DNA from: Escherichia coli
Lineage (GTDB): Bacteria; Pseudomonadota; Gammaproteobacteria; Enterobacterales; Enterobacteriaceae
Direction: 5' to 3' (one strand)
DNA: 64,000 nt
Assembly (NCBI RefSeq): GCF_011045215.1
Contig: NZ_CP049201.1
The position numbers were made by a program, and so were the translations under genes. Position 1 is the first letter of the stretch. Each line of letters starts with the position of its first letter. A model generated the notes under the pieces. The model made no database searches, had not been told where the DNA came from, and saw only the letters and a list, made by a program, of their open reading frames with translations. Below are positions 19,116-43,736 of this stretch, one piece after another.

Positions 19116-19126
19116 AGCGGCTGACC

Positions 19127-20683: not shown

Positions 20684-20802
20684 GGATAACTCCTTATTCT
20701 CTCGATAAAAATACGAAAGGCCACACTTCCCGAAGGAGGTGTGGCCTAGCTCTGTTTATAACATCGTTGCGGGTGGTATGCTGAAGGTAACGGTAGTATG
20801 TA

Positions 20803-21565: not shown

Positions 21566-21624
21566 TGATATTGTTCCTTGATTTAACTTGCCTGCTCATC
21601 CGGGCCGGACAGCGCTGATGCCGG

Positions 21625-25242: not shown

Positions 25243-26790
25243 CTAACATTTAGAATTGTTTAGCATTTCGTTTTTTACAGCAGTTTCAGCAAGCCAGACC
25301 ATAAAATCAATCGCACTCATCGGTTTTGCATAAAGATACCCCTGAATAAATCCAACATCCTTACCAAGAATATATCGAAGCTGCTGTTGGGTACTGACAC
25401 CTTCGGCGATAACATCCAAACCAAGTTTCTGGCATAGTGAGATAATCGTATCCAGAATAGGTACATTGATACCGCTGGTGTCAATCGTATCAACAAAGGT
25501 ACGGTCAATCTTTAAATAATTAGCTGGCAACTGTTGTAGATAAGCAAGTGAACAATAACCAGTACCGAAATCGTCTATTGCTATTAATACACCTTTTTCG
25601 CGCAAAATGGTGAGTTTCTCAGCCACTAGCTCTGGCTGGGTAATCAAGATGCGTTCCGTAACTTCCAACATAAGCTGAATAGTACCGATAGCTGCCATCA
25701 GTGCTTCTACATCCGAAATAAAGTCGTCATGAATCAAATGCTGAGGTGAAATATTAACGCTGATGTAAAAACTTTTGGGCAGTTGCCACTGCTTTACATC
25801 TTGGGCAATAAGTTGAAACAGATGACGTGAGAGCGGAACGATCATACCCTCACTTTCTGCCGCAGTGATGAAAATATCAGGTGTAATAAAGTTTCCTTCA
25901 GGTTGAGGCCAGCGCATTAAAGCCTCAACGCCACCACAACATTTGTGATTGACATTCAATACTGGTTGGTAATGAACAATAAATTGATCGTTTTTCATTC
26001 CTTTTGTTATTTCTCGCGCTAAAGAAAATCTTATCCGGTACCATCGCCGATAAAGCATGATTGTCAGAAAAGATAAACAGATGGATAACGGGATAAAAAA
26101 AAGTAAATTCTGCATCCATCGTGATGTTAACGTTGTGATCGGCGTTGCAACGGCTAGAGAGATTTGCTGATTCGGCAAAGAGTAGTGCTGAGTCATAAAT
26201 ATTCTGGCACCTTCTTTAGGTTGGCTTACAAGTAAATCACCAGTACCAAATCGCAGAGTGAATTTTGCTGATCTTTCTGTAGCCAAGACGTCCATCAGTT
26301 CTTGGATGTACCTTGAGTCAACAATGACAAATGCAGTTTTATTGCCTGTTATCTTTTCTGCGTAGATCACGACTGGTCTTTCGGGACCGCCTGACATACG
26401 AATAAAAGAAGAGACCCATTTCTCAGATAATGGTGTGGGGATTGTTTTGCCTTCAGGCAAAGGAAAAAGCAGTTTCTTCGCACCCGTGACAAAAGAGCAA
26501 GTAATATAACCATTTTCCAACAGTCCAATATCACGAATATAGGGAGTGAAGGCTCGAGTGTGGTTGAGTTCCGCCAGCATACTAGGGCAAGTGACACTGT
26601 CAAGTTGCTTTGCTTTTGAAGTTACGCGCCATGAAGCAACAGACAAATCTTCGCCATAACGAAGCAGGGTATTGGCACTAAAATTAATATCCTGTTTTAG
26701 TTGCATAACACTGGCAAGCAGCGCCAAGAGAGTCATAGCAACCAACGGAATGAATATGGAACCAAGTACAAAAGACCGCTTTACTTTCAT
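25243..26790 (-). CDS. Membrane-anchored cyclic-di-GMP phosphodiesterase (periplasmic sensor domain plus EAL domain)
   Basis: 515-aa ORF with an N-terminal TM helix, a periplasmic domain with cysteines (CSS-motif-like), a second TM helix, and an EAL domain (QPVLNVN...GVEALMRWPQPEG ... IDDFGTGYCSLAYL). Confidence 0.8.
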   Translation of the reverse strand: MKVKRSFVLGSIFIPLVAMTLLALLASVMQLKQDINFSANTLLRYGEDLSVASWRVTSKAKQLDSVTCPSMLAELNHTRAFTPYIRDIGLLENGYITCSFVTGAKKLLFPLPEGKTIPTPLSEKWVSSFIRMSGGPERPVVIYAEKITGNKTAFVIVDSRYIQELMDVLATERSAKFTLRFGTGDLLVSQPKEGARIFMTQHYSLPNQQISLAVATPITTLTSRWMQNLLFFIPLSICLSFLTIMLYRRWYRIRFSLAREITKGMKNDQFIVHYQPVLNVNHKCCGGVEALMRWPQPEGNFITPDIFITAAESEGMIVPLSRHLFQLIAQDVKQWQLPKSFYISVNISPQHLIHDDFISDVEALMAAIGTIQLMLEVTERILITQPELVAEKLTILREKGVLIAIDDFGTGYCSLAYLQQLPANYLKIDRTFVDTIDTSGINVPILDTIISLCQKLGLDVIAEGVSTQQQLRYILGKDVGFIQGYLYAKPMSAIDFMVWLAETAVKNEMLNNSKC

Positions 26791-27344: not shown

Positions 27345-30300
27345 TCAAAAAGTCACCCTTATCCCCAGCACGGCAGCTGTATCACTGTAGCCCTTATCAC
27401 CAACCTGCTGACCGATGGTACCCCACAGGGAGACATACTTCGACAGTTGGCCTTCAACGCCCGCTTTCAGCTCGCCCACATCGCGGGTGCCCGCCAGATT
27501 GATGTTGTCACCGTTCATCGATACGCCAAACTCTTTACTGTTGTGAAGCCAGTTCGCTTCGATGAACGGTTGGAAGGTACGAGCCATACCCTCGTCAAGC
27601 TGGCTATGCCCCTTGCCAAACAGACGCACGCCGATGCGGGTCTGCACGTTGCCATCACCCTGGCCTTTCACGCGGGTACCATTCGCTTCCTGATGATCGT
27701 CGGCTCTGACGCCCATCCACGTTATTTGCGCTTGCGGTTGGATGTACAGCGCATTACGCTCGCCGGTCCGCGCCAGTTTCCAGGTGTAGCCGGATTCCAG
27801 TGATGCAGTGAAGCCCTTTGATTCATACGCCTCCACGCCAACGCCACGACCGGAAACGGTGTTGTCAAACCAGTTGTACTGCGCCCAGGTATCGACGTAG
27901 GCGCCTTCTGGCGTTTGCAGCCAGGTGCCGTACAGGCCAATGCTGTAACCACTGATGCGGCTGTCGGCGCGGTAGCCGTTAAGCTGGTTTTCGGCCCGAG
28001 TTTTCTGGTTGGCATAGCCTGCCATCAGACCGAGACGGAAACGATCTGCGCTGTCAGATGACCACTCAAAAATGTCGCCGCCGAGCTGCGTCACATTACG
28101 GTTAGCCTGCATTCCCAACAGGCCGCTGCTGTCTTGCTGATGGGTGTGACCGCCAGCATTACGCAGCCAAAGGCTGGTGATGGCTTCCTTGCCCGTCAGC
28201 GTGTCGATATAGTGTGTTTCGCCCTGGCGATCGCGTAAGCGAGTCACAAACAGCGTGTTTGCCGCCGCAAGGTTTGCGATGTAGCTTCCCGCTTCCGGAC
28301 GCAGATCGTCATGCCTGTCTGGAGTAGGGGCCGGGTCTGGATTAGTCTTACCACTGGTCAGATACCAGTTGCCGCTGTTCTCCCCCTGACCGCGGCCAAG
28401 GCTGTAATCGTAAGCGCCTGCCACAATACGGCCAGCCTGGATAAATTCGCCGTCAGAGTGCCCATCAACATGGATCACTTCAATGCCGTTCAGCGTTTGC
28501 GCACCTGTGCCGCCCGCATTGACTACGCTCACAGTGGTTTCACCATGGGTATCCCCTTTTACCACCAGTTCATCGGTAACGGAATGGTCATCACCCAGTG
28601 CGGTATTTATCGTGAGATACCCCTTTCTGCCGGTATAATTACCATTAATAACCAGTTGGTTACCGGCCTGATGACCTTTGAACCCGGTGGCCAGCAAACC
28701 GCTGTTGATAAGGTCTCCGCCCACCGTAAACCGATGATTCTCCTCATGGTGGGCACCCACCTGTAGCGTCCCGGCATTATTGATATTGCCAGCTACACCG
28801 CCAATACCGGCGAGCATTCCCGGCTGAGCGATATCCACCTGCGAGCTGGCAAGCGTCGCCGGTGACGCGTTGTTACCCAGCAACAGGCCACCTTGCTTGA
28901 TGTCCGTCTGGCCCGTCCAGGCGGCGTTGTCGCCCAGCGCGATCGTCCCGGTCCCCAGCTTGATTACGCGACCGGAACCATAAACGGTATTATCCAGTCG
29001 CCAGTTGTTGTCGCCGTTCAGCACCAGAGATCCGCTGTTATGAACTTCCGCCGCGCCGAGGCTGTCAGCCGTTAACGCCGTCATTTGTGAACCCGTATTA
29101 ACGGTGAACTGCCCCGAGAATGCCCGATTAGTCCCTGCCAGCACGACATCGCTGTCGATTAACTCAACCTGTCCGGCATCGCTAAGGCTATTGTAGAGAC
29201 GGCCTGCGGCATATCTGACGGACAGCGTTCCCGCGGCCACGATATTGCCTGTACCCGCCCCCAGTGTATGATCCAGTACTACCTTCGCGCCCTGCATTAT
29301 CGCGGTCGTTGCTTGCAGCTCGGGATTGTTACCAGAGATAGATAAGGTTCCGCCCGCAACGTTGAGCTGCCCGTTACCCGCCAGTACGCCTGATGCCTTA
29401 CCGCCGTTGGTCAACGTGAGTTGGCCGCCATTCAAATGGGTTAGAGAGCCGTTTTCTGCCGTGAGCGTGGCGATGGTTTGCGAATGGCCGCGCATATCAA
29501 ACCCGGTGTCGCCAGCCAGCTTCAGCTCGCGGGTATTCCCGAGCACGTTATCGTTCAGCATCGCCAGATTACCGCTGCGCACGTTGGTGACGCCGCGATA
29601 GTCATTATTCAGATTCGACAGCGTTACCGTCTGGCCTTTCTGGCTGTCAATCGCCAGATCGCCGTCGCCGGTGAGTGTTGCGCTGAGATCGGCCGCATTA
29701 CCGCCTTTTCCGTTCGCATTGAGGATAAGCGCATCAGCTTCTTTGTCCATCAAATCGACATTGGTCAGAGCATAGTTGACGTACAGTCCGTCATCACGGT
29801 CACCGCGGGTAAGACGATAGTCGTAAGTTGCATTCGCAACCACGGCGCCATGCTGGGTAATGTCGGCTTCAGCTGTATCACTGATCACATGGGCGTTCTG
29901 GTCAGTTAACGTTAAGTTACCACCGTGACCGATAACGCCGCCGTCACTGGATACCAGTCGCACAAGAATATTACTCTCATCCTGTTCCAGTAAGGGGATA
30001 AGGGTATCAGGCATTGGCCTGTCATTACTGAAGGTGGTTCCTCTCGTTACCTGTACGGTTCCCTGACCCGAAATATCCAGCTGGCCGGTGGTATGTACCG
30101 TAGCAGGGGAGGTTTTTTGACCCGGGTTAACTTCACCAACAAGCAATGTTCCCCCCTCAAACGTGAGCCCGCCCAGGGTTTGCCGACCCTCGCCAACCTT
30201 CACCAAACTTCCCGATCCCATTTTCATCGACAGGTCTTTTAACGCTGCCGCATTCGTTTCGGCCAGCGAAAACGCCGTATCCTGAAGCGCCACCGTTCCC

Positions 30301-31556
30301 CGGAAGTTATCGGTCAAACGAGATGAGTCAAAAACAAAATCGTTGCCGTTTGTGTTAACGGAAAGCACGCCGTCTCCGGTTAATTTGTTCAGAAAACGCC
30401 AGCGCTGAGATGTCTCTATGGACAGCGTGCCGCCGTTAAGCAATACCGTGTTGGCGCCAATATTTTTTGGGTCCGTTATTAAGAGGCGGGCCGGAGAGTC
30501 GATAGAAAAATAGCCATGAAAATTCGAGTTATCACCGGCAAGCGCGGATAGGCCGTTCAACATATTGACGCGGCCCTTGCCACTCAAATTCGCCGACAGA
30601 GAAAATAAAGCGCTGGCATGATTAAATGTCAGAACGCCTTCCCTGAAGCCGAAAATAATCTCTTTGGTATTAATATTTCCGGCGGCGACAGCCTGCTCGC
30701 CGGCCCTTGCTCCAACGGCAAGCTCTCCTTTCCTGCCTCCTTTGGAAATGATAATTTCTCTGGCGCTTAGCAGGCCATTATCGGAGGCGATCGCTGTGGC
30801 TGTTCCATCCCAACCTACAATAAGCGTCGCGTCCGTCGAGATGACAGAGCCGGCCCCGGCTACCTGAAGCAGATTATCATAGCCGGCAGTTTCCAGCTGA
30901 TTCCCGACCTGAATATTCGCGTCAGCATGCGTCTTACCGCCATTAGTGGTTATCAGCGTGCCTGACCCATAGGTCCCGACTATAATTCTGCTTGCGGTTG
31001 CTAACTCACTTCCCGGACCATCAACATAGATACGTCCTGAGGTCGTAGATGACGGCGTTCTTCGGCTACCTATCCATATCCCGCTCCAGGTATTGTCCGA
31101 GCCGTGATGAAATAACTTTCCTCCCTGAGTAATATTTACCACGCCGCTTCCGTTTCCCATACCAACCTGTAAAGAACGATTTTTTTTGTCAATCGTAACT
31201 ATACTTCCTGGTCCGCTAATATTCAGTACCCCATAGCCATCAGGATTTTTTGAATCTGACTTACCGCCAACCAGTAAAGGATCGGTGTAAGTAGATTTGA
31301 TAATGTTCAGTCTGCCACCATCCGTTATATTGACGGTGCCTGTGGAGCCGTGTATCCCTATTTGAAAAAGCTCAGCTTGAACATAACCACCATTAGAAAT
31401 ATTAAGGGTGCCGTCAGTCTCATCACCAATAAAAATCCACGGTTCTTCCCATAATGAATCTATCTTTAACGCTTGGTTATCATTAATGGTTGCAGCTGGT
31501 GCACCGGTTGCACACATTGATGTGATAATAGCGATGAATAATTTACTTACTTTCAT
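27345..31556 (-). CDS. Type Va autotransporter (AIDA-I-like adhesin family, 1403 aa)
   Basis: N-terminal signal peptide, long Gly/Thr/Asn-rich beta-helical repeat passenger (repeated ...GG.L...G... units), C-terminal beta-barrel translocator ending ...VLGIRVTF with a terminal aromatic residue. Confidence 0.85.
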   Translation of the reverse strand: MKVSKLFIAIITSMCATGAPAATINDNQALKIDSLWEEPWIFIGDETDGTLNISNGGYVQAELFQIGIHGSTGTVNITDGGRLNIIKSTYTDPLLVGGKSDSKNPDGYGVLNISGPGSIVTIDKKNRSLQVGMGNGSGVVNITQGGKLFHHGSDNTWSGIWIGSRRTPSSTTSGRIYVDGPGSELATASRIIVGTYGSGTLITTNGGKTHADANIQVGNQLETAGYDNLLQVAGAGSVISTDATLIVGWDGTATAIASDNGLLSAREIIISKGGRKGELAVGARAGEQAVAAGNINTKEIIFGFREGVLTFNHASALFSLSANLSGKGRVNMLNGLSALAGDNSNFHGYFSIDSPARLLITDPKNIGANTVLLNGGTLSIETSQRWRFLNKLTGDGVLSVNTNGNDFVFDSSRLTDNFRGTVALQDTAFSLAETNAAALKDLSMKMGSGSLVKVGEGRQTLGGLTFEGGTLLVGEVNPGQKTSPATVHTTGQLDISGQGTVQVTRGTTFSNDRPMPDTLIPLLEQDESNILVRLVSSDGGVIGHGGNLTLTDQNAHVISDTAEADITQHGAVVANATYDYRLTRGDRDDGLYVNYALTNVDLMDKEADALILNANGKGGNAADLSATLTGDGDLAIDSQKGQTVTLSNLNNDYRGVTNVRSGNLAMLNDNVLGNTRELKLAGDTGFDMRGHSQTIATLTAENGSLTHLNGGQLTLTNGGKASGVLAGNGQLNVAGGTLSISGNNPELQATTAIMQGAKVVLDHTLGAGTGNIVAAGTLSVRYAAGRLYNSLSDAGQVELIDSDVVLAGTNRAFSGQFTVNTGSQMTALTADSLGAAEVHNSGSLVLNGDNNWRLDNTVYGSGRVIKLGTGTIALGDNAAWTGQTDIKQGGLLLGNNASPATLASSQVDIAQPGMLAGIGGVAGNINNAGTLQVGAHHEENHRFTVGGDLINSGLLATGFKGHQAGNQLVINGNYTGRKGYLTINTALGDDHSVTDELVVKGDTHGETTVSVVNAGGTGAQTLNGIEVIHVDGHSDGEFIQAGRIVAGAYDYSLGRGQGENSGNWYLTSGKTNPDPAPTPDRHDDLRPEAGSYIANLAAANTLFVTRLRDRQGETHYIDTLTGKEAITSLWLRNAGGHTHQQDSSGLLGMQANRNVTQLGGDIFEWSSDSADRFRLGLMAGYANQKTRAENQLNGYRADSRISGYSIGLYGTWLQTPEGAYVDTWAQYNWFDNTVSGRGVGVEAYESKGFTASLESGYTWKLARTGERNALYIQPQAQITWMGVRADDHQEANGTRVKGQGDGNVQTRIGVRLFGKGHSQLDEGMARTFQPFIEANWLHNSKEFGVSMNGDNINLAGTRDVGELKAGVEGQLSKYVSLWGTIGQQVGDKGYSDTAAVLGIRVTF

Positions 31557-31963
31557 AAAAAGCTCGGCGAATAATATGGATTGCCCCGTTGAGGAAAATT
31601 GACAGACGAGTCAGACCTGACAATGCTGCCGGTTCTGTGTGCTTTGAGCTGAAATCCTTATCTGGCAACGTATTAACAAGGTCTTTGTGCTAAGGAAAAG
31701 TTTATGGAAAAAGATCTGAAAAGTGCTTACTGCAAACTGAATAAATCTTACTTTTTTCTTACTTGTTTGACTTCTTTTTAGACTGAACGTAGGGTGCATT
31801 TGAATGAGAGGATAGTGCTGTTTGATTGATCAATAATAAAAATTCAGTACAGTGACGGAATATCTTATTTTATTATTGTCATACACTTCAGCGCGCCGGG
31901 CCGATCATTAGCAGAGAGAGATTATTCATAGAGATAACGAAGAAACCCTATCGTTAAAGTAGA

Positions 31964-32719
31964 GTGATAATGAATGCTACCAAATTTTTGTTAGACGGCA
32001 GAGTGCTATTTGATAGCGCCAGAATGACATTAAGTCGACAAGAGAAAATAGTCAGGCTCTCCGAGTCAGAGTGCCATTTACTGCTGGCTTTTTGGCTTGG
32101 ATTGTATAAAAAAGAAGAGATAATCAATTATGTCTGGAAAAATCGCAGCGGATGCGTTTCTGAATCGAGCTATTACAAACTTATCAATCAACTGCGAAAT
32201 AACTTCAATCGGGTGGGGCTTCACGCATCAGATATTGTTACACATCCCCGGGTGGGAATATCGTTATCGATAACGCTGACTTCCGCTGATGAAATGTGCG
32301 ACCTTCAGCAACAAAACGATGATGGGGCGCAGAAAATAAAATTCCGTGCCCTTTTGTCGCACCGGTTTATGGTTAAATGTAAAAACATGCGAGTACTTTG
32401 TTGCACCAGCGGTGTGGTATTGCTGATAGGTATTATCCTCATTTTTAGTTTTCCCAGCGATACAACATGGAATAAATCTGATAAGGAGTTCACCTCGCTT
32501 GGCGAGTTTGATGGTTATATTTTCTTTAAAATGAAGACGGATAAATTGACATTCAAGCAAGTCATCGCCGCATATACATCGATGACATTAAAACCTGACC
32601 CGCAAAATGGTCATTATCTTTATTACATCAGGGAGCCTGATATCAATCTTTTATTTCAGTGTTTAAATCCGATTGAAAACGTGGTGCCAAAATGTTTAAC
32701 CATAAAAGAACAGTACTGA
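31964..32719 (+). CDS. ToxR/CadC-like membrane-bound transcriptional regulator (N-terminal winged helix, one TM helix, periplasmic domain)
   Basis: N-terminal region FLLDGRVLFDSARMTL...ESECHLLLAFWL...EEIINYVWKNR..VSESSYYKLINQLRNNF...THPRVGISL follows the OmpR/ToxR winged-helix pattern; TM segment VLCCTSGVVLLIGIILIFSF; AT-rich gene. Confidence 0.7.
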   Translation: MIMNATKFLLDGRVLFDSARMTLSRQEKIVRLSESECHLLLAFWLGLYKKEEIINYVWKNRSGCVSESSYYKLINQLRNNFNRVGLHASDIVTHPRVGISLSITLTSADEMCDLQQQNDDGAQKIKFRALLSHRFMVKCKNMRVLCCTSGVVLLIGIILIFSFPSDTTWNKSDKEFTSLGEFDGYIFFKMKTDKLTFKQVIAAYTSMTLKPDPQNGHYLYYIREPDINLLFQCLNPIENVVPKCLTIKEQY

Positions 32720-33198
32720 TTACGATGACGGTCATTGCGCTGGTGCTGATCGTGATATTTGGCAGAAACGGGTGGAGTGTTCAGCGAAATGTTATGAATG
32801 TGGATAATTTTATTTGTACATCTAAATCAATAGTTTATATTGAACCTATGAAGATGAAACTGCGTGGTACGTTTGTGCTGGATCTTGAGTCAGACCGAAT
32901 CGCCATTCATTATGAAGTTGAACAGGCGGATCATAAGGAAAAACTTTTTTTCCAGGATGTTCATATCAGTAAATTACTCCGAACAGGTATCAGAACGTTC
33001 ACATTTAAAGTCAGCTCAGTAAATAAATTTTCTGCTGATTCAACCGGAGATATGTTTTCCTGGTTACGTCTCCTTCAACCCGGTACGGTGAATGAGTTGA
33101 ATATTGTCCAGATCGGTCAAAATGCATATCTGTATTCGTTGAACAGGCATTTATATAATATTTGTACGACAAGCACCAACGCGGTGAATACGCACTAA
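32692..33198 (+). CDS. ToxS/TcpH-like bitopic partner protein of the upstream regulator
   Basis: 168-aa ORF overlapping the upstream gene by 28 nt; N-terminal TM helix (VLITMTVIALVLIVIF) followed by a soluble, presumably periplasmic, domain. Confidence 0.55.
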   Translation: MFNHKRTVLITMTVIALVLIVIFGRNGWSVQRNVMNVDNFICTSKSIVYIEPMKMKLRGTFVLDLESDRIAIHYEVEQADHKEKLFFQDVHISKLLRTGIRTFTFKVSSVNKFSADSTGDMFSWLRLLQPGTVNELNIVQIGQNAYLYSLNRHLYNICTTSTNAVNTH

Positions 33199-33396
33199 TA
33201 GCTGTGTAATGGCCGGTCTATATGGGCATTGTGGCGGGTGTTGATAACGGAAGGGACTATTACATGTCCAATTTCGTCTGGAGCTGGCCTGTGTTAATAT
33301 GAACGCTGAAGGTTCCGTAAGGCTCTTAACTCAGTGCCTGGCAAGGCTGTACAACGGCAGAATCGGATACTCAATGAATAAATTGCAGAAGAAACC

Positions 33397-34137
33397 ATGA
33401 GCGAGCAAAAGTATCTTATCGACAATCGCGTGATATTTGATTCTGAGCGTATGTCATTGACTCACTCAGACAAAACGGTGAGCATTTCAGAATCCGAAAC
33501 GAATTTGCTGCTTGCTTTCTATAAGGGGTTATTCAAAAAGGATGATTTAATCGGCTGGGTCTGGGGGCGTAAGGGAGTCGTAGTTTCTGATGCCAGCTAT
33601 TATAAGCTCATCAATCAGTTACGTAATACTTTCGACAAAATAGGTCTACCGCCCTCATCTGTGGTGACGCGGCCCAAAGTCGGCGTTGAGCTGGTTTTAT
33701 CCATCACGCTCATTAAGCCTGCGACTCCCCGACAACCTGCTGCTGAACCGGTAGAACACTCAGCCGAATCCTTCAGCGAAACCCCGACAATACATGAACA
33801 CAATAAAACCGCTGTAGCAGGCCAGAGAGACTGGCTTTTTCTGGTATTGGCCGCGCTGTTGATGATCGCAGGATTTGGCGCCAGTCTGTGGGAGAGCCAT
33901 CCCTACTTTTCAGTGCCCGTTACCCATGACGGTTACTATTTTTATAAAGTAAGTAACGATAAAACGTCCTTCGAGGATGTGGCTGCGGCCTATGCAGAAT
34001 TGACAATTCCGGTGATTAAGCAGAATGGACGTCATATTTACTATATCAGAGTGCCGGATACCCATATTTTCGTCCAGTGCCTCAACCCACTCACCGTAGC
34101 GGAGCCAAAATGTATTACCCTAAAAGAACGTTATTAA
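33397..34137 (+). CDS. ToxR/CadC-like membrane-bound transcriptional regulator, paralogue of 31964..32719
   Basis: YLIDNRVIFDSERMSL...ESETNLLLAFYKGLFKKDDLIGWVWG...VSDASYYKLINQLRNTF...TRPKVGVEL is a clear paralogue of the first regulator; TM segment LFLVLAALLMIAGFGASLW. Confidence 0.7.
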   Translation: MSEQKYLIDNRVIFDSERMSLTHSDKTVSISESETNLLLAFYKGLFKKDDLIGWVWGRKGVVVSDASYYKLINQLRNTFDKIGLPPSSVVTRPKVGVELVLSITLIKPATPRQPAAEPVEHSAESFSETPTIHEHNKTAVAGQRDWLFLVLAALLMIAGFGASLWESHPYFSVPVTHDGYYFYKVSNDKTSFEDVAAAYAELTIPVIKQNGRHIYYIRVPDTHIFVQCLNPLTVAEPKCITLKERY

Positions 34138-34598
34138 GAATATTCACCGTGTTCTTTATTCTCGTCTCCGTGATGTTATGGGTACAGGTAATAAAGAAGC
34201 ACGCGGTCAGTCACCCCTCCGCGGGCAATTTTTTCTGTGCCACCAAAACGATAAGCAACATACAGGCGAAGGGGATAACCGTTGCGGGGGATATTGTCAT
34301 CGACTTCAAAACGCAACGTATTACGTTACAGCATGATGTGAAACAGCATAATAATGCGCATAGCCTGTTATATCGGGATGTTTACATGAAAAATCTGCGG
34401 CGCGTCACTGACGATCTTTTTACGTTTGAGATTGATTCTGTAAAGATATTTCCTGATGACAATGTCGGGAATTTTTTCTCCTATTTTCGCCTGCTCCATC
34501 CGGGGGGCCGCAACGAATTGCGAATTCAACGCATTGGCGAGAAAACCTATCTTTTTTCGCTTAATCGTCAGATTTATAACGTCTGTACAGCAAGTTGA
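34110..34598 (+). CDS. ToxS/TcpH-like bitopic partner protein, paralogue of 32692..33198
   Basis: Start placed at the internal Met (MYYPKRTLLRIFTVFFILVSVMLW) so that it overlaps the upstream gene by 28 nt exactly as in the first pair; C-terminal region paralogous (..YLFSLNRQIYNVCTAS versus ..YLYSLNRHLYNICTTS). Confidence 0.55.
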   Translation: MYYPKRTLLRIFTVFFILVSVMLWVQVIKKHAVSHPSAGNFFCATKTISNIQAKGITVAGDIVIDFKTQRITLQHDVKQHNNAHSLLYRDVYMKNLRRVTDDLFTFEIDSVKIFPDDNVGNFFSYFRLLHPGGRNELRIQRIGEKTYLFSLNRQIYNVCTAS

Positions 34599-34878
34599 AC
34601 TGCACAGGAATGCCCCGAGAGATTCTCTGAGGCCGTATGATAAGAGAGCGGTAAGCGGTAAGGTAACTGAAAGCTCATTACTTATTTAAATACATGGGTT
34701 TATATCAATCGTTCTGATTCTGTTCAACAGTGACAGAGTGAGATTATGATTTTTGTAAGATCTTCTTCCAGACTTTATCTGCCCTGATTAGCTATATTTT
34801 CGCCGCTGTAAACGGACATCAGAATACGTTTAAGTAGTCGTAATTAATGCTTTTTTCAATAAGATAAAGAGGGAGTAT

Positions 34879-35424
34879 TTGTCCATGTCTACGCGACTTC
34901 GTGGCGCTGCAATAATTTGTTTTTGTCTGCTAGCCTCATCTCAGAGTATGGCTAGTGGCACACATACGGTATCAATGGGGTATGCTCAAACACATCTGAG
35001 CGCATTAAAAAGCTCGAACAGCAAAGATCTTCATGGCTTTAATATAAAATATCGCTACGAGTTTGACGAACGCTGGGGCTTTATTGGTGCGTTAACGGCG
35101 ACTCGCCACGAAGTTGAGCATTATAGCTGGCAATCAGCAAAATTAAAAAAAGAGGGTACCGATACCATTGATTATAGTTCGGTAATGTTTGGCCCAACTT
35201 ATCGCTTTAATGATTACATCAGCCTGTATGGCAATGCAGGTATGGCGAGAATGAAAATGAAAAATACTCACTCAAACGAATCAACGGATGATTCGTTTGC
35301 ATACGGGGCCGGGGTAATATTTAACCCGTTAACCAACCTATCGCTTGATCTTTCCTGGGAAGCGTCAAAATTCTATTCTGTCGATGCCAATACGTTTGGC
35401 GTAAGCGTTGGCTATCGCTTTTAA
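34879..35424 (+). CDS. Ail/Lom/OmpX/PagC-family eight-stranded outer membrane beta-barrel protein
   Basis: Signal peptide, alternating amphipathic beta-strands, C-terminal ...FGVSVGYRF ending in Phe; family pattern GYAQT...FNIKYRYEF. Confidence 0.75.
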   Translation: MSMSTRLRGAAIICFCLLASSQSMASGTHTVSMGYAQTHLSALKSSNSKDLHGFNIKYRYEFDERWGFIGALTATRHEVEHYSWQSAKLKKEGTDTIDYSSVMFGPTYRFNDYISLYGNAGMARMKMKNTHSNESTDDSFAYGAGVIFNPLTNLSLDLSWEASKFYSVDANTFGVSVGYRF

Positions 35425-35485
35425 AAATTGTACTCCCAGGGAGTGGGGATAAGTAAAATCATATTAAAGAAATTAAGGTTTATCC

Positions 35486-35842
35486 ATGAAATATATATTA
35501 CCAGCTCTTTTTACGGTGTTTTTAACCGCCTGTAGCGCTAACTCATTACATTCGGGGGCGGAACGGGTTCGTGTGACTCATAACGAGCCTGGAAAAGAGT
35601 GTTCGTGGTTAGGCGACATCACTGGCAGCCAGGGCAACTTTTTTACCGGAGGTTGGACCTCGAACAGTAACCTCGAAACAGGCGCGCGGAATGATATGAA
35701 AAATCAGGCCTGGAAAATGGGTGGAAATGTTGTTGTGCTGCTAACGCAACGCGCAGGGCAAACAGGCAGTTCGTACAATGGCAGTGGTTCAAGTCAGCAA
35801 ACTAACGTGACGCTAAGCGGATCGGTCTACCGTTGCCCATAG
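35486..35842 (+). CDS. Small lipoprotein (118 aa)
   Basis: Signal peptide with lipobox (FLTACSAN), Gly/Ser-rich mature part. Confidence 0.6.
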   Translation: MKYILPALFTVFLTACSANSLHSGAERVRVTHNEPGKECSWLGDITGSQGNFFTGGWTSNSNLETGARNDMKNQAWKMGGNVVVLLTQRAGQTGSSYNGSGSSQQTNVTLSGSVYRCP

Positions 35843-36018
35843 TCTACTATATTTCATTGATGAACAGAGAGCAGATATCAACATTGACGATTGCGGTCTG
35901 CTCTGATTCATAAATGTCATAAAGGAATGATATTTCATTTTTTTGAAGGTTATTATGATAATTTCTTTTATGCCGGAAAATATATCTTATATTACTTGTG
36001 GGTATGTTGTTGTAAGGT

Positions 36019-36594
36019 ATGGATATACATTTTAAAGCACAATCTCCTGAGGCAGTAACGCTCGCCGTGTGGCCAGATAATAATCCTCTGTTCACTGACT
36101 CTCTTGCCCATTTGATCACCGAAATAAACGTAATAAATCGCGTAGAAGATTTTCTTTTCGTCAATTTTTGCATCGATAACTTTATATACTTTATTCATGA
36201 TGAGTGGCTTGAAAAGTTGAACAAGTCAGGCCTGAGGGGGGTGCTGGTTATTGACCGTTTTATGCATTCGCTGGCGAATTATTGGCGTGAAAAACAACAG
36301 GATATTATCTTGTTATCGGTTGGCGATCGGGACCTGACGTCATTTGTATCGGCCCTGAATAGCCTGTCTTATGGACAAAGCAGGGTGCTAGAAGATGTCA
36401 TGCCGATAACAGAAAAAGAAATTTTTGTGTTACGTAAACGCCTCTCCGGTATGTCCGTAAGAAATATCGCACTCACCCTTAATTGCTCGGTTAAAAGTAT
36501 TTATTATTGCCAGTATTCTTTATTAAAAAAATTGAGGCGTTCGTCACGAATAGGCGAGATTTATATCCATCACTCTCACGTGCATGAGACTTAG
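36019..36594 (+). CDS. LuxR/FixJ-type HTH transcriptional regulator (191 aa)
   Basis: C-terminal HTH EKEIFVLRKRLSGMSVRNIALTLNCSVKSIYYCQYSLLKKL fits the LuxR-type pattern; no receiver-domain motifs recognised in the N-terminal part. Confidence 0.6.
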   Translation: MDIHFKAQSPEAVTLAVWPDNNPLFTDSLAHLITEINVINRVEDFLFVNFCIDNFIYFIHDEWLEKLNKSGLRGVLVIDRFMHSLANYWREKQQDIILLSVGDRDLTSFVSALNSLSYGQSRVLEDVMPITEKEIFVLRKRLSGMSVRNIALTLNCSVKSIYYCQYSLLKKLRRSSRIGEIYIHHSHVHET

Positions 36595-36798
36595 TCGTTA
36601 GCCTGTTTTTTCTGGCGGAATGACGGCATAACCCGGAAGGGATATGCCGCCTGCTTCAGCCTATCACGCCATCAACGCAAAAACTCCCCAGCCAAAATAC
36701 TCCCGGCTGTAGGTAACATTACGCATCGGCGCCGCGCTTAACTCTGCCCGAACCTCAAGCGCGAAACCTGATCCTACCCACGTAATATGGACACAGGC

Positions 36799-37665
36799 CT
36801 AAGCGAGGTTCTGGTTTTCAAATTGTTCCGGACTGAGGCCGCCACACCAACTGTGCCGCCGCCACCGATTGTAATCACATTCGATATAATTAAACACCGT
36901 TGCCCGCATTATTTCCCGGCTGATAAAGTGTTCTCCATGGATACATTCCACTTTCAGCGAATGAAAGAAGCTTTCCACGCAGGCATTATCGTAGCAGCAA
37001 CCTTTTGCGCTCATACTTCCACGCAGATTATGCCGCTTCAGTTGCGCCTGATAATCTGCTGAACAGTACTGGCCTCCACGGTCCGTGTGAACGATAACGT
37101 TCCGGGGCCTCTTACGCCGCCACAGCGCCATCTGCAGGGCATCGCAGGCCAGTTGCGCCGTCATGCGTGGCGACATTGACCAGCCAATAACGGCACGTGA
37201 CCACAGGTCAATGACCACTGCCAGATACAGCCAGCCTTCATCTGTACGTAAGTACGTGATGTCTCCTGCCCACTTCTGGTTCGGGCCACTGGCGTAAAAA
37301 TCCTGCTCCAACAGATTTTCTGACACAGGCAGGCCGTGTGCGCGGTAGCTGACCGGGCTGAACTTCCGGGAGGCCTTTGCCCTCAGTCCCTGACGGCGCA
37401 GGCTTGCCGCCACGGTTTTTACGTTAAAGGGGTAACCCTGAGCACGCAGTTCATCCGTCAGGCGTGGGGCACCGTAACGCTGTTTTGACCGGGTAAAAGC
37501 CGCGAGGACAACGCTGTCGCAGTGTTGGCGGAACTGCTGACGCGTGCTTATCCTTGTCCGCCGCTGACACCACGTATACCAGCCGCTGCGGGCCACCCGG
37601 AGCACGCGGCACATTGCTTTGATGCTGAACTCAGCCTGATGTTTTTCAATAAAGACATACTTCAT
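36799..37665 (-). CDS. insF: IS3 transposase OrfB (DDE integrase-type catalytic domain)
   Basis: 288-aa ORF with DDE-domain residues (...WAGDITYL..., ...[10 protein letters not shown]...) inside the IS3 element. Confidence 0.9.
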
Positions 37666-37970
37666 TTCAGGCGCTTCGCGAAGTATGTCGCGGCCTTTTG
37701 GAGGATAGCCAGCTCTTCATCCCGTTCTGCCAGCTGGCGTTTGAGACGTGCAATCTCGGTAGACATCTCCAGTTCACGTTCAGAAGACGTCTGCTGATTT
37801 TGCTGTTTACTGCGCCAGTTGTAGAGCTGTGATTCATACAGGCTGAGTTCACGGGCTGCGGCAGTAACACCGATGCGTTCAGCAAGCTTCAGGGCTTCAC
37901 TGCGAAATTCAGGCGAATGCTGTTTACGGGGTTTTTTACTGGTTGATACTGTTTTTGTCATGTGAGTCAC
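37662..37970 (-). CDS. insE: IS3 transposase OrfA (HTH protein)
   Basis: 102-aa [55 protein letters not shown]... inside the IS3 element. Confidence 0.9.
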
Positions 37971-38589: not shown

Positions 38590-38906
38590 GAATTGGAAAG
38601 GAGCTTTCCTTTCAGGCTGCTTTAACTTCGGTAAAATACGTTCTTGAAGCACCAGATAATAAAGTCGGTAATATTGCCACTATTGAGTTTTTCATCAAGG
38701 TTAATTACGAGAATAACCCTTCTGATAAAGCTGAAGTTGAGAAGGTGCTTAATGAATCAGAACTGAAGAATGCTCTTAAGTCCAGAATTCTTGATGATAC
38801 TGTCAGGCAACACAGATGATTAAATCATCTGGATGTATTTAATGCATAAACATTTCTGAATGATACATAAAAATTGTATTTAATGTTTCCCTCCTGGAGA
38901 ATCTCT

Positions 38907-39191
38907 ATGCCCACAGCAGCCAGACTCAGCGATAAAGGCACCCAGCATGACGGTTATTATGAGACCACCATTATTGCAGGCTCCTCCACCGTCTTTATTG
39001 ATGGTATGCCCGCCGCCCGTCAGGGCGATCCGCTGACACCGCATTCCAAACCTGACCATCCCCCTCACCCCCGTAAAATCGCAGGCGGCTCTGCCACTGT
39101 CTTTATTGACGGTAAACCTGCCGCCAGAACCGGCGATGCCATTGACTGTGGCGGCGTGGTTATCGGTGGCGGCACGGTAAATATAGGCTGA
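38907..39191 (+). CDS. PAAR-domain protein (T6SS spike tip)
   Basis: 94-aa protein with PAAR repeats (DGMPAARQGDP, DGKPAARTGDAIDCGG); start placed at the internal Met preceded by GGAGA; immediately upstream of vgrG. Confidence 0.85.
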   Translation: MPTAARLSDKGTQHDGYYETTIIAGSSTVFIDGMPAARQGDPLTPHSKPDHPPHPRKIAGGSATVFIDGKPAARTGDAIDCGGVVIGGGTVNIG

Positions 39192-39211
39192 TTAATTATC
39201 AGGGAGGCTGT

Positions 39212-41611
39212 ATGCCCTCAGAAGGATTACGTTTCACGCTGTCGGTGGACGGTATCGTGGAGATGGCGACGGCGGTGGTGAGCTTCCGTCTGTACCAGCA
39301 CCACTGCACGCCGTTCATCCTGGATGTGGATATCGCCAGCGGGCTGTCTGACCTGACGGCGGAGGATTTTCTGGAGAAGAGCGCGGTGCTGACGGTCTGG
39401 CAGGGTGATATCCCGCAGCGTTACGTCAGCGGTATCGTGACGGAGGTGCAACTGGGGGAGAACAACGACTGGCAGATGCGTTATTCCCTGAGCATCAGCC
39501 CGCCGCTGTGGCGGGCAGGGTTACGGCAGAACTTCCGTATCTTCCAGCAGCAGGACATCCAGACGATATCAGCACAGCTTCTGAGAGAGAACGGAGTGAC
39601 GGCATGGATGCCGCTGTTTTATGAAGACCATCCGGCGCGGGAGTTCTGTGTGCAGTACGGGGAAAGCGACCTGGCGTTTCTGGCGCGGCTGTGGGCGGAG
39701 GAGGGGATTTTCTTCTTTGAGCGGTTTGCGGCGGACAGTCCGGAGCAGAAGCTGACGCTGTGCGACGATGTGGCGGGGCTGTCACAGGCGGGAGAGCTTC
39801 CGTTTAACCCGGACACATCGGCAGGAGCGGAGACGGAGTGTCTCAGTACGTTCCGTTATGAGGCGCATGTCCGCCCGTCGTCGGTGCAGAGTCAGGATTA
39901 CACGTTTAAGGTGCCGGACTGGCCGGGGATGTATGAGCAGCAGGGTGAGAACCTGAACGGACAGCTGGCGCAGTACGAGATATTTGATTATCCGGGAAGG
40001 TTCAAGGATGAGCAGCACGGCAAGGATTTCACGCTGTACCAGATGGACAGCCTGCGCAGTGATGCGGAAAAGGCCACAGGGCAGAGTAATTCACCGAAGC
40101 TGTGGCCGGGAACGCGGTTTACGCTGACGGGGCATCCGCAGAAGATGCTGAACCGTGAATGGCAGGTGGTACAGAGCATACTGTCAGGAAGCCAGCCGCA
40201 GGCGCTGCACGGCAGCCAGGGGAGGGGAACCACGCTGGGAAATCAGTTAGAGGTGATACCGGCAGACCGGACGTGGCGTCCACGGCTGCAAAGCAAACCG
40301 AAGGTGGACGGGCCGCAGAGTGCCATTGTGACCGGGCCGAAGGGTGAGGAGATATTCTGCGACGAACATGGCCGGGTACGGGTGAAGTTCCACTGGGACC
40401 GTTATCACGGGATGACGGAGGCGAGTTCATGCTGGGTGCGGGTATCGCAGGCGTGGGCGGGGCCGGGGTTCGGTAACCTGGCGATACCGCGGGTGGGCCA
40501 GGAGGTGATTGTTGACTTCCTGAACGGCGACCCGGACCAGCCCATCGTCACGGGACGGACCTACCATGAAGATAACCGCTCCCCGGGCGACCTGCCGGGA
40601 ACGAAGACGCAGATGACGATACGGTCGAAGACCTATAAAGAAAGCGGATTTAACGAGTTGCGGTTTGAAGACGCCACCAGTAATGAGCAGGTGTATATCC
40701 ACGCGCAGAAGAACATGGATACGGAGGTGCTCAACGACCGGACAACGGATGTGAAGCATGACCATACGGAGACCATTGGTAACGACCAGAAGATAACGGT
40801 GGTGAAGGGGCAGACGGTTGAGGTCGGGACCAGAAAAGAAGGAGGCCACGACCAGAGTATCACGGTGGCGAACGACCGGAGCATAACGGTACGTAACGAC
40901 CAGACGCTGAAGGTGACAAATGACCGGACGGTGAGCGTGAGTCACGATGACGGTCTGTACGTCAGAAATGACCGTAGGGTGACGGTGAAAGGGAAGCAGG
41001 AGCATAAGACGACGGGTAACCACATCAGCCTGGTGGAGGGGAAGCACAGCCTGGAGGTGAAGGGGGACCTGGCGGAGAAGGTGAGTGGCGCGCTGGGGAT
41101 AGAAGTGGACGGGGATATCGTGCTGGAGAGCAGCAGCCGGATAAGCCTGAAGGTGGGTGGCTCGTTTATCGTCATTCAGCCGGGCGGAGTGGATATTGCC
41201 GGGCCGAAGATAAACCTGAACGGTGGGGGCAGTGCGGGGACACCGGTGGGGACGATGCAGCCGGCGGTGCTGGAGGCTCCGGAGGATGAGAGCAGTGATG
41301 ATGGCAGTGATGACTCCGGAGAGGATAGTGGCAATCCCGCAGGGAGTGACGGAGGAGGTGATGGCGGTGACGATGAAGATGATCCTGAAAAATATACCCT
41401 CCAGTTCCATTTTACGGACGATGACGGGATACCGTATTCAGAGACGCAGTATATTGCCTTTTTTGAGGATGGCACACAGACGCGTGGTGAAACAGACAGA
41501 GAGGGATATACAGAAATATTTTATACAGATACAGCACAGGAAATTAAAGTCCAATTGTTATTTTCGGATGCTTTTTATATTGAGCCGGAGGGGCATTATG
41601 GCAGGGAATAA
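39212..41611 (+). CDS. vgrG: Type VI secretion spike protein VgrG (799 aa) with an acidic linker and a small C-terminal extension domain
   Basis: Gp27-like N-terminal region, gp5-like OB-fold and beta-helix (WAGPGFGNLAIPRVGQEVIVDFLNGDPDQPIVTGRTYHEDNR; repeated ...NDRT/ITV... units), then an Asp/Glu/Gly/Ser-rich linker and a roughly 70-aa C-terminal domain. Confidence 0.92.
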   Translation: MPSEGLRFTLSVDGIVEMATAVVSFRLYQHHCTPFILDVDIASGLSDLTAEDFLEKSAVLTVWQGDIPQRYVSGIVTEVQLGENNDWQMRYSLSISPPLWRAGLRQNFRIFQQQDIQTISAQLLRENGVTAWMPLFYEDHPAREFCVQYGESDLAFLARLWAEEGIFFFERFAADSPEQKLTLCDDVAGLSQAGELPFNPDTSAGAETECLSTFRYEAHVRPSSVQSQDYTFKVPDWPGMYEQQGENLNGQLAQYEIFDYPGRFKDEQHGKDFTLYQMDSLRSDAEKATGQSNSPKLWPGTRFTLTGHPQKMLNREWQVVQSILSGSQPQALHGSQGRGTTLGNQLEVIPADRTWRPRLQSKPKVDGPQSAIVTGPKGEEIFCDEHGRVRVKFHWDRYHGMTEASSCWVRVSQAWAGPGFGNLAIPRVGQEVIVDFLNGDPDQPIVTGRTYHEDNRSPGDLPGTKTQMTIRSKTYKESGFNELRFEDATSNEQVYIHAQKNMDTEVLNDRTTDVKHDHTETIGNDQKITVVKGQTVEVGTRKEGGHDQSITVANDRSITVRNDQTLKVTNDRTVSVSHDDGLYVRNDRRVTVKGKQEHKTTGNHISLVEGKHSLEVKGDLAEKVSGALGIEVDGDIVLESSSRISLKVGGSFIVIQPGGVDIAGPKINLNGGGSAGTPVGTMQPAVLEAPEDESSDDGSDDSGEDSGNPAGSDGGGDGGDDEDDPEKYTLQFHFTDDDGIPYSETQYIAFFEDGTQTRGETDREGYTEIFYTDTAQEIKVQLLFSDAFYIEPEGHYGRE

Positions 41612-42401
41612 TAATACTAGTGGGACTTCACAACCCGAGTCGCAAGTATGTGTAGTACCGCAAAAAATTACAAATAAATTTAAAATAATGATGAGTAAGG
41701 CTTGTAAAGCACAGAAAATGGTTTTATTGAAAAGAGCAGATGATATTATGTCATGGGAGGGGGAACAACAACGAGATTTTATTAAAGTTTTTGGCCTTAA
41801 AGGCGAGGACATTATAAAAATCAGAAAGGTTGGGGAAGATACTGGGAAACGAATGCAAGCGAGACTATTCATAATGGATGGCATCAGACAAATAATGACG
41901 ATTGCAAATGGTTTGACGATCGAAAGCTATAAAGATTATACGAACTGCAATGAATTTGCTGCTTTTATTAGTCCACATCTTGATCCTCCTTACATTGTAA
42001 ATATCGGAGCGCATTTTGAATACAGACATGGTATAAAACAGTCGGTTACAGGTAGAGACTCTCATGTAAGTACACTTTGCCATGAAATGTCCCATATATT
42101 TTGGTATTGGGGTGACAATCAAAAAGGTGGTATGTGGACTCAGGATTATACGGGTATTAATAAGTTCGCAACAAGTAATAAGGATGAAGTTAGCTATGAG
42201 AAACATGTTTCAGTGGCTAATGATCTGGTTACATTGCGTAAAGATCAGTTATTTGAGAATGCATATAATGTTGAAAGATATTTTTATATAAAATTAAATG
42301 ATGAAGATATTGAAGCTCAAGATGAGAATATGTTAGCAAAAAAAGTAGAGGATAAAATAAAAGAGATAGAAAAATGTTTTGATGAGTTGATGGGGAAATA
42401 A
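41598..42401 (+). CDS. Putative T6SS effector: uncharacterised protein with an HExxH zinc-metallopeptidase-like motif (267 aa)
   Basis: Start ATG lies within the last 14 nt of vgrG (translational coupling); contains CHEMSHIFWYWGDNQKGGMWTQDYTG (HExxH followed by conserved Asp residues); abrupt drop in GC content relative to vgrG; followed by a secreted-protein gene. Confidence 0.6.
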   Translation: MAGNNNTSGTSQPESQVCVVPQKITNKFKIMMSKACKAQKMVLLKRADDIMSWEGEQQRDFIKVFGLKGEDIIKIRKVGEDTGKRMQARLFIMDGIRQIMTIANGLTIESYKDYTNCNEFAAFISPHLDPPYIVNIGAHFEYRHGIKQSVTGRDSHVSTLCHEMSHIFWYWGDNQKGGMWTQDYTGINKFATSNKDEVSYEKHVSVANDLVTLRKDQLFENAYNVERYFYIKLNDEDIEAQDENMLAKKVEDKIKEIEKCFDELMGK

Positions 42402-42402
42402 G

Positions 42403-43242: not shown

Positions 43243-43304
43243 TTAAAATGTATCGCAGGTTTTATTTTCTGTAATGCTGGTGCATGTGCGTAAATATTTC
43301 TTAA

Positions 43305-43730
43305 GAGCCGGAAACACCTCTTCCGCCTTTATCGACGATAAACCTACCGCCAGAACCGGTGATGCCATTGACTGCGGTGGCGTGGTTAAAGGTGGAGGGC
43401 GATGTGGTGCTGGAGAGCAGCAGCCGGATAAGCCTGAAGGTGGGCGGCTCGTTTGTGGTCATCCATTCAGGGGGCGTGGACATCGTCGGGCCGAAAATCA
43501 ATCTCAATAGCGGCGGTAGTCCGGGAACGCCGGTGCCGACGCTGCAACCGGCGGTTCTGAAAGCGCTGGCAGATGATAAAAGTTTAGCGGCTGAGCAAAA
43601 TGATAGTAATGCATCGTCCGATCAGAATGATAACAACGATGAGGGTGAGGAAGCGCCAGAAAAATCGGTGTGTAAGGAGTGCCTGAAAAGGGCGCAAGAA
43701 GCCGCCGCCGTTTTTGCGCCTCGTGGATAA
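43305..43730 (+). pseudogene. PAAR-vgrG deletion-fusion remnant (3' end of a PAAR gene joined to the 3' end of a second vgrG)
   Basis: 43309..43392 closely matches the PAAR 3' end at 39092..39175 (...FIDDKPTARTGDAIDCGGVV...); from about 43393 the sequence matches vgrG at about 41110..41245 (VLESSSRISLKVGGSF.V.....GGVDI.GPKINLN.GG) and then continues into a different C-terminal tail. Confidence 0.8.
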
Positions 43731-43736
43731 GGGAGA

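Follow-up and report, generated by a model that had tools for sequence, protein, structure and literature searches.

Two paralogous co-component cassettes between an autotransporter gene and an Ail-like gene on a rare Escherichia coli island

Arrangement of the two gene pairs

The window analysed here, a stretch of 64,000 nt of Escherichia coli DNA (contig NZ_CP049201.1), contains two consecutive gene pairs, each encoding a ToxR-like membrane regulator and a small partner protein. We call them pair A (31970–33198) and pair B (33397–34598). The four genes are arranged in the same direction, as follows.

31964 (GTG) or 31970 (ATG)–32719, plus strand: regulator A, an open reading frame (ORF) and probable orthologue of Salmonella STM0341
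32692–33198, plus strand: partner A, identified as an ORF and by AlphaFold and Foldseek
33397–34137, plus strand: regulator B, an ORF with the same architecture as regulator A and probable orthologue of Salmonella STM0344
34110 (ATG)–34598, plus strand: partner B, probable orthologue of STM0345; its longest ORF starts at GTG 34077

The regulators are approximately 250 amino acids long and the partners approximately 165. E. coli PapRG-06-5 has an identical locus, in which the NCBI annotation pipeline PGAP picks the same start codons. The regulators are 39% identical to each other (E 9e-65) and the partners 36% (E 7e-37). Each of the four proteins has a single strong hydrophobic segment in the hydropathy profile, at residues ~139–167 in the regulators and ~4–33 in the partners, and in the AlphaFold models of regulator and partner a long helix coincides with these segments. 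The GC content of the region is 40–46%, compared with 52–57% in the adjoining autotransporter gene. An earlier reading of the same DNA from the sequence alone had described two paralogous pairs in AT-rich DNA, each with a single-transmembrane-helix regulator and a small bitopic partner overlapping the 3′ end of the regulator gene by exactly 28 nt, flanked by an autotransporter adhesin gene and an Ail/OmpX-like gene. All of these features were found again.

When the ATG starts are used, both overlaps measure exactly 28 nt. The same length was observed in all 17 pairs that we compared, which come from nine loci in six genera. In each of them, the partner ATG is embedded in the sequence CCA AAA TGT, read in the regulator frame as the codons of a P-K-C motif, so that the start codon overlaps a conserved Cys codon. 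A Shine-Dalgarno-like GGAG or GGTG, located 5 nt upstream of the partner ATG, is likewise present in 17 of 17 pairs. This arrangement is far beyond chance. Since the overlap constrains both reading frames, the Cys codon and the start codon are both frozen. The position of the ATG within the Cys codon, together with the GGAG or GGTG 5 nt upstream, suggests coupled translation, so that regulator and partner are probably co-produced from a single mRNA.

Predicted folds and known relatives

Regulator A consists of a winged-helix domain (residues 1–105), a transmembrane helix at residues ~139–160 and a periplasmic β2-α-β3 domain. We built a profile from 14 aligned regulators and compared it with the sequences in the PDB. 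The top match was the DNA-binding domain of Vibrio cholerae ToxR (E 3.9e-12, profile positions 4–111), and CadC was next (E 1.5e-3). In the AlphaFold model of regulator A, residues 10–100 form a four-stranded sheet, three helices and a β-hairpin wing with a predicted local distance difference test score (pLDDT) >90. A long helix follows (residues 122–160), and the periplasmic part (174–245; pLDDT ~80–88) is modelled as strands 174–180 and 183–188, helix 195–203 and strands 216–222, 225–231 and 242–245. A Foldseek search of the PDB with this model placed ToxR-DNA complexes on top (target TM-score 0.81), with the CadC DNA-binding domain at 0.79. Profile match, predicted fold and Foldseek search all agree with the ToxR/CadC-type winged helix that had been proposed from the sequence, and the structure prediction supports it at pLDDT >90 and a TM-score of 0.81 to ToxR. 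The regulator is hence modelled as a membrane-spanning protein with a cytoplasmic ToxR-type winged helix and a small periplasmic β2-α-β3 domain.

Two residues of the periplasmic domain, both in its last two strands, stand out across the regulators: C231 is invariant and C242 nearly so. The recognition helices of regulators A and B are almost identical (SYYKLINQLRN), consistent with one shared DNA motif. A word-indexed search with the regulator profile returned 37 matches, all from the same family, and reached none of PsaE, MarT and YqeI. None of the four proteins of the two pairs matched a family in NCBIfam. The periplasmic domain of only ~80 amino acids and the presence of a conserved overlapping partner gene place the regulators outside the CadC-type one-component class.

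Partner A was modelled by AlphaFold from 17 sequences with a pLDDT of 86 and a predicted TM-score (pTM) of 0.70, as an N-terminal transmembrane helix followed by eight meandering strands. Its conserved residues Cys42 and Cys158 lie in the first and last strands, and a disulfide between them could close the modelled barrel. The top matches of a Foldseek search against the whole PDB were VtrC (5kew, 5kev), V. cholerae ToxS (8alo_B) and Vibrio parahaemolyticus ToxS (8u2f_B). In AFDB50, the matches beyond the own family were FidL, FidL-like proteins and YqeJ at E ~1e-7. An exhaustive hidden Markov model (HMM) search yielded four distant relatives. Aligned to the core partner family with hhalign, these gave 96% probability (E 1.8e-9), and two of the four match Pfam FidL_like. 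The window partners themselves fall below both the FidL_like (PF15941) and YqeJ_C (PF27292) models. Together, the alignments and models support the view that the partners are remote relatives of FidL/YqeJ-type barrels.

A search of PDB sequences with the partner profile gave no meaningful match and retrieved no ToxS or VtrC sequence. Neither Pfam nor the PDB search places the partners in the ToxS sequence family, and the likeness is structural only. To this extent the proposed ToxS-like nature of the partner was upheld: sequence matches are missing, but VtrC and ToxS are the top structural matches. According to the model, the partner is a membrane-anchored, eight-stranded, lipocalin-like periplasmic barrel.

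Several co-component systems resemble the window pairs in part. With VtrA/VtrC of V. parahaemolyticus they share a membrane-spanning winged-helix regulator and an overlapping gene for an anchored lipocalin-like barrel. With the wider class of VtrA/VtrC-like systems (PMC9214523) they also have in common the predicted single transmembrane helix and small β2-α-β3 domain and the overlap of the Cys codon with the start codon. VtrC, the best PDB structural match of the window partner, is 4–7% identical in the structural alignment, with no detectable sequence similarity. VtrA lacks a periplasmic disulfide, whereas the window regulators have two periplasmic cysteines. The ligand of VtrC is a bile salt, and VtrA/VtrC acts on vtrB and the type III secretion system 2 (T3SS2). 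Regarding ToxR/ToxS of V. cholerae, ToxR is the best match of the regulator in both sequence and structure, and the three best structural matches of the partner include ToxS. Periplasmic cysteines are present in ToxR/ToxS and TcpP/TcpH as well. The periplasmic domain of the window regulators lacks the C-terminal helix, unlike ToxR/ToxS and TcpP/TcpH of V. cholerae, and there is no overlap between toxR and toxS (PMC9214523), whereas the window pairs overlap by 28 nt.

PsaE/PsaF of Yersinia and MyfE/MyfF are overlapping pairs located beside the adhesin operon that they activate. Near the overlap, PsaE has two cysteines in its periplasmic part, as found here, and it is stabilised by PsaF against proteolysis (PMC8407435). 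Its direct targets are psaABC and psaEF alone, which it regulates from sites located ~300 bp before the start codon (bioRxiv 10.1101/782003). We compared this system with the window by description, not by sequence; it differs in consisting of one pair, which is co-oriented with the fimbrial genes. PsaF, which senses pH, is rich in histidine (nine residues), compared with four to five in the window partners.

MarT/FidL from Salmonella pathogenicity island 3 (SPI-3), GrvA/FidL and YqeI/YqeJ of E. coli are enterobacterial cassettes with disulfide-containing barrels of the FidL/YqeJ type. They differ from the window pairs in overlap geometry, in the sequences of their periplasmic domains and in being reached by Pfam FidL_like or YqeJ_C. 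MarT/FidL, cited in PMC9214523 as activating the neighbouring autotransporter gene misL, provides a further parallel, as the C-terminal region of the autotransporter next to pair A is MisL-like.

The closest counterparts are encoded by STM0341–STM0345 of Salmonella. Kinch et al. (PNAS 2022; PMC9214523) surveyed enteric genomes for co-component signal transduction systems of the VtrA/VtrC type and reported, by computer analysis, STM0341/STM0342 and STM0344/STM0345 as neighbouring cassettes of this kind. They described overlapping reading frames, a partner ATG that overlaps the Cys codon of the regulator, and disulfide-containing partners related by sequence to FidL, YqeJ and SF3507. The window pairs show the same organisation, two adjoining units of a winged-helix transmembrane regulator and an overlapping disulfide partner with the ATG in the Cys codon. 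The assignment to ToxR/ToxS-type pairs made from the sequence alone was thus right as to type, but the pairs had already been reported as STM0341/2 and STM0344/5 (PMC9214523).

The window proteins are 49–59% identical to those of two Salmonella loci (L004 and L016), whose gene order equals the published LT2 order: stb operon, pair A, the EAL gene STM0343 (named so in the published gene description), pair B, STM0346 and STM0347. Regulator B of L004 has 247 amino acids, matching the published length of STM0344, and STM0346 and STM0347 are described as an Ail/OmpX homologue and a LuxR-family regulator (PMC3361161). From these data, we infer with good confidence that the window pairs, like those of Citrobacter sedlakii, are the orthologues of STM0341/STM0342 and STM0344/STM0345. 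The loci differ in that the divergent neighbour is the stb fimbrial operon in Salmonella and an autotransporter gene in the window, and in that the EAL gene lies between the pairs in Salmonella and away from them in the window. Furthermore, the published model of LT2 STM0342 is a deteriorated half barrel (PMC9214523), whereas partner A of the window is modelled as a complete eight-stranded barrel, and the host here is E. coli, in which the locus is very rare.

Published experimental information on this orthologous group is confined to STM0341. Its deletion in SL1344 led to less biofilm and less calcofluor binding, and the mutant was 9-fold less adherent and 4-fold less invasive (data not shown there; PMC2805695). 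STM0341 is also a direct target of SprB, a regulator encoded in Salmonella pathogenicity island 1 (SPI-1; PMC5013294). For the neighbouring genes, a transposon insertion in stbC raised the expression of STM0346 and STM0347 17- to 18-fold (PMC3361161).

A conserved module and its candidate operator

The pairs belong to a larger block of genes. The following features surround them in the window.

25243–26790, minus strand: CSS-motif EAL cyclic di-GMP (c-di-GMP) phosphodiesterase, beyond the autotransporter gene
27345–31556, minus strand: AIDA-I/MisL-type autotransporter of 1403 amino acids, candidate target (Pfam AC_1 and Autotransporter; NCBIfam ECSE_1600/AIDA-I/MisL-like)
31726–31762, minus strand: candidate operator block GTAAGA-N5-GTAAGA, with the repeat at 31746–31762 and a third in-phase GTAAG at 31726–31730
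34744–34798, plus strand: conserved block upstream of the Ail-like gene, with TTATGA-N5-GTAAGA at 34744–34760 and a −10-like TATATT at 34793–34798
34885–35424, plus strand: outer-membrane protein of the Ail/OmpX/Lom family, candidate target, corresponding to STM0346
35486–35842, plus strand: DUF4156 lipoprotein, a conserved module member
36019–36594, plus strand: EcpR-like regulator of the LuxR/GerE type, last module gene before the IS3 element, in the position of STM0347
36799–37970, minus strand: IS3 element, which ends the module and divides it from the PAAR/VgrG type VI secretion genes

The module is kept in Citrobacter sedlakii, Citrobacter rodentium, Salmonella enterica, Klebsiella pneumoniae, Klebsiella oxytoca, Proteus mirabilis and one gut Enterobacteriaceae genome. 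The order is pair A, sometimes a CSS-motif EAL gene, pair B, the Ail-like gene, the DUF4156 gene and usually the LuxR/EcpR-like regulator gene, which follows DUF4156 in the window and lies between the Ail-like and DUF4156 genes in Salmonella. The block of pair A, pair B, Ail-like and DUF4156 genes, usually with the EcpR-like gene, is conserved across six genera, a finding that is new here. The DUF4156 gene is by far the most conserved of the module, its product being 78–97% identical across genera compared with only 47–58% for the adjoining regulators. The EAL protein of the window is 59–64% identical to the one encoded between the pairs in Salmonella (STM0343), Klebsiella and C. rodentium; between pairs A and B of the window, we found no trace of an EAL remnant.

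The gene divergent from pair A belonged to an adhesin locus in every compared locus with pair A, and the type of adhesin varied. In Salmonella, Klebsiella and Proteus this position is occupied by a five-gene chaperone-usher (Stb-like) fimbrial operon, and in C. rodentium by a chaperone-usher operon. C. sedlakii, whose locus is chromosomal and adjoins proBA, has the 1403-amino-acid autotransporter there, as does the E. coli window. The C-terminal region of this autotransporter resembles MisL and AIDA-I. The divergent adhesin is therefore swappable while the regulators stay, which is also new here.

One genome, Enterobacteriaceae bacterium MGYG-HGUT-00110 from the human gut (L018, 10001–13193), contains no more of the module than pair B and the Ail-like, DUF4156 and EcpR-like genes. 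These are 86–94% identical to those of the window, and both pair A and an adjoining adhesin are missing. This single case may indicate that the adhesin is associated with pair A and the Ail-like gene with pair B. Such a natural half module could show which pair controls which gene.

The two pairs had been read as a tandem duplication from the sequence. A recent local duplication does not fit: the pairs are only 36–39% identical, and Salmonella, Klebsiella, Citrobacter and Proteus have separate orthologues of A and of B. The duplication is thus an old one that took place outside this island, and the locus is an old two-cassette module. The ratio of nonsynonymous to synonymous substitution rates (dN/dS), measured against C. 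sedlakii, was 0.09–0.28 for five of six genes and 0.73, based on few substitutions, for regulator A, indicating purifying selection on most module genes at the sequence level. Nucleotide identity to the C. sedlakii locus (L008) over 31970–34598 of the window is 97–98% for pair A and 91–94% for pair B. This uneven divergence suggests a mosaic origin or recombination inside the module.

The regulator family comprises 37 members in a collection of 5.8 billion sequences and the partner family 31 representatives among 1.84 billion. Among 100,044 species-representative genomes, we found the module in five loci. As C. rodentium escaped this peptide-pattern scan, the actual distribution is somewhat broader. 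In E. coli, the 2.9-kb region was found in 1 of 5,426 complete genomes, that of the baboon isolate PapRG-06-5, and the best match of the window was a sister assembly. Compared with PapRG-06-5, the window has a 3.7-kb deletion covering YfjS, WYL and GTPase genes and a different sequence past the IS3 element.

Upstream of regulator A, an alignment of eight divergent loci contained a sole conserved block, present whichever adhesin is encoded on the other side. It is formed by direct repeats of GTAAGA, in the window GTAAGA-AAAAA-GTAAGA (31746–31762, minus strand), located 189 nt from the start codon of the autotransporter gene and 207 nt from that of regulator A. With the third in-phase copy, GTAAG at 31726–31730, the spacings are 11 and 21 bp. 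An exact match to the 17-bp pattern occurs in the window, C. sedlakii, C. rodentium and two Salmonella loci; Proteus has one mismatch and Klebsiella two. Across the loci, its distance to the regulator A start is near constant (207–242 nt), while that to the adhesin start varies from 189 to 478 nt.

A related block lies ~125 bp upstream of the Ail-like gene. Here the heptamer TGTAAGA is invariant in nine loci, and the copy 11 bp before it reads GTAAGA in Salmonella (an exact 17-bp match), GTAAAA in Proteus and Klebsiella and TTATGA in the window. The −10-like TATATT follows 32 nt downstream of the repeat. In the 20.9-kb Klebsiella locus (L010), the pattern with at most two mismatches occurs only at these two sites. 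The boxes of TcpP and ToxR are direct repeats about one helical turn apart, as are the window repeats. We regard the in-phase GTAAGA direct repeats, 11 bp apart, as candidate binding sites of the regulators, a proposal that is new here and was drawn from aligned conservation and the specific 17-bp pattern, not from de novo motif discovery. A GTAAG cluster at 34640–34673, one mismatch from the pattern, was also considered and rejected as a site; it is not conserved even in C. sedlakii. Scanning with the sigma-70 consensus detected no promoter in the two intergenic regions, and the total number of sites was below that in shuffled sequences; the promoter positions given here are guesses. No Rfam family was found within 31000–37000.

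Beyond the module, the window features an rRNA operon and dnaQ, and the island is inserted at a tRNA-Asp gene (15726–15802) just after dnaQ. Its first part (15726–22700) contains CP4-like genes: a CbtA/YeeU toxin-antitoxin system, RadC, an antirestriction gene, DUF932 and IrmA. After the IS3 element follows type VI cargo (38874–47440) consisting of PAAR, VgrG, an M35 peptidase, DUF4123 and a Tle1-like phospholipase. This cargo cluster is common in E. coli, with 5,316 of 5,426 genomes matching parts of it, and is joined to the module only via the IS3 element. The sequence-only reading had put the vgrG promoter among those to be tested with the regulators. The gene lies beyond the IS3 element, the junction differs in PapRG-06-5, and type VI genes are not adjacent to the module in any other genome or genus. 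Because of this separation and the lack of adjacency elsewhere, the link is incidental and vgrG is not a credible target.

Where the window has the PAAR/VgrG genes after the IS3 element, PapRG-06-5 carries a segment with a third, distant winged-helix/partner pair (33914–34624 and 34621–35097 of its locus) downstream of a chaperone-usher operon. This pair is 21% and 18% identical to pair A, overlaps by 4 nt and is absent from the window. In K. pneumoniae, a YqeI/YqeJ-type pair (L010, 15805–17095, minus strand; Pfam Trans_reg_C and YqeJ_C) lies beside the module together with a further fimbrial operon, which means that co-component cassettes cluster in that genome.

Proposed function, alternatives and significance

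We consider it likely that the locus encodes two paralogous co-component cassettes of the VtrA/VtrC and ToxR/ToxS kind, orthologous to STM0341/2 and STM0344/5, which control adjoining genes. By analogy with VtrA/VtrC, ToxR/ToxS, TcpP/TcpH and PsaE/PsaF, the periplasmic domains of regulator and partner would pair as a heterodimer. The barrel may sense a periplasmic cue, either a hydrophobic ligand such as bile or fatty acids or pH, and may shield the regulator from proteolysis. The membrane-bound regulator would then activate nearby AT-rich promoters, with candidate sites at the GTAAGA repeats ~210 bp upstream of regulator A, shared with the adhesin gene, and ~125 bp upstream of the Ail-like gene. 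Likely targets would be the own operon, the divergent adhesin and the Ail-like and DUF4156 genes. In analogy to their relatives, the pairs probably switch on neighbouring surface-adhesion genes. We prefer such local targets because synteny is conserved, as are the two repeat blocks, and because MarT/FidL with misL and PsaE provide precedents.

Several observations weigh against this interpretation or parts of it. Pfam gave only a weak, sub-threshold match of regulator A to Trans_reg_C (independent E-value 0.091), and for the partners neither Pfam, even at E 10, nor NCBIfam gave any match. The Foldseek matches to VtrC and ToxS are modest (E ~3e-3, TM-scores 0.5–0.64). The orthology to the STM genes was derived from synteny, protein lengths and published gene descriptions rather than from an alignment of the LT2 sequences themselves. 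Concerning the DNA sites, an unbiased survey of 9-mers in both intergenic sets yielded 11, compared with up to 10 in shuffled controls, and was thus not above them; the Ail-side repeat of the window is degenerate, its first half-site having two mismatches; and the repeat may serve only autoregulation, given its constant distance to regulator A alone. Heterodimer formation, ligand, protection from proteolysis and DNA binding we infer by analogy.

Among the alternatives, the pairs could be real co-component regulators whose main targets lie elsewhere, in biofilm and cellulose formation, invasion, motility or c-di-GMP turnover, the adhesin and Ail-like genes being passengers of the island. The broad phenotypes of the STM0341 mutant in biofilm formation, calcofluor binding, adherence and invasion (PMC2805695) and the direct targeting of STM0341 by SprB (PMC5013294) point in this direction, as do the c-di-GMP phosphodiesterase gene that travels with the module and the relative GrvA, known to act on the distant locus of enterocyte effacement (LEE; PMC9214523). 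However, the order of adhesin locus and Ail-like gene is kept in six genera despite the change of adhesin type, conserved repeats occur in exactly those two intergenic regions, and neighbouring genes are the targets of PsaE and MarT, the relatives studied best. The adherence and biofilm defects are also what the loss of an adhesin activator should cause. We regard mainly distant targets as doubtful.

A and B might also bind side by side to the same in-phase repeats and be obliged to cooperate, integrating two periplasmic signals in the manner of an AND gate. There is a precedent in V. cholerae, where ToxR and TcpP cooperate at the toxT promoter, and the PDB holds a TcpP transcription activation complex (9gdr). 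The nearly identical recognition helices, the three in-phase repeats with 11- and 21-bp spacing upstream of regulator A and the joint inheritance of A and B in nearly all loci would fit such a mechanism. The human gut locus with pair B, but without pair A or an adhesin, suggests that B is able to act without A and that A is tied to the adhesin. We regard obligate cooperation as unlikely.

That the pairs are silent or decaying cargo of an acquired island, repressed by H-NS and functionless in this E. coli, would suit the AT-rich DNA, an island full of insertion sequences and pseudogenes, the presence in a single complete E. coli genome, the deteriorated half barrel modelled for STM0342 (PMC9214523) and the truncated partner fragments common in Salmonella and Klebsiella databases, but is very improbable given four intact ORFs, a partner A modelled as a full eight-stranded barrel, dN/dS well below 1 for most genes and intact overlap and cysteines.

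The preferred reading, co-component cassettes acting on their neighbours, can be extended tentatively. The block might constitute a portable controller of surface remodelling, in which two lipocalin-type sensors respond to two host cues and act through shared GTAAGA repeats on an exchangeable adhesin output. Its outputs would be Stb-type fimbriae in Salmonella, Klebsiella, Proteus and C. rodentium and the AIDA/MisL-type autotransporter in C. sedlakii and the window. If true, this would be a rare documented case of adhesin output cassettes being exchanged under a retained regulator module.

Cassettes of this class and architecture, and the orthologous group itself, have been described before. 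Our analysis adds the multi-gene module, the adhesin swap, the candidate operator, the full barrel of partner A and the rarity in E. coli. For the biology of E. coli the effect is small, with the island in 1 of 5,426 complete genomes, a baboon isolate. Sensors of the ToxR/ToxS and VtrA/VtrC type couple bile, pH and fatty acids to virulence genes in several gut pathogens, and their enterobacterial members are almost entirely uncharacterised. The double cassette STM0341–0345 is shown here as part of a block of approximately seven genes that moves between genera, and this block gives the co-component family concrete, testable targets and a candidate operator.

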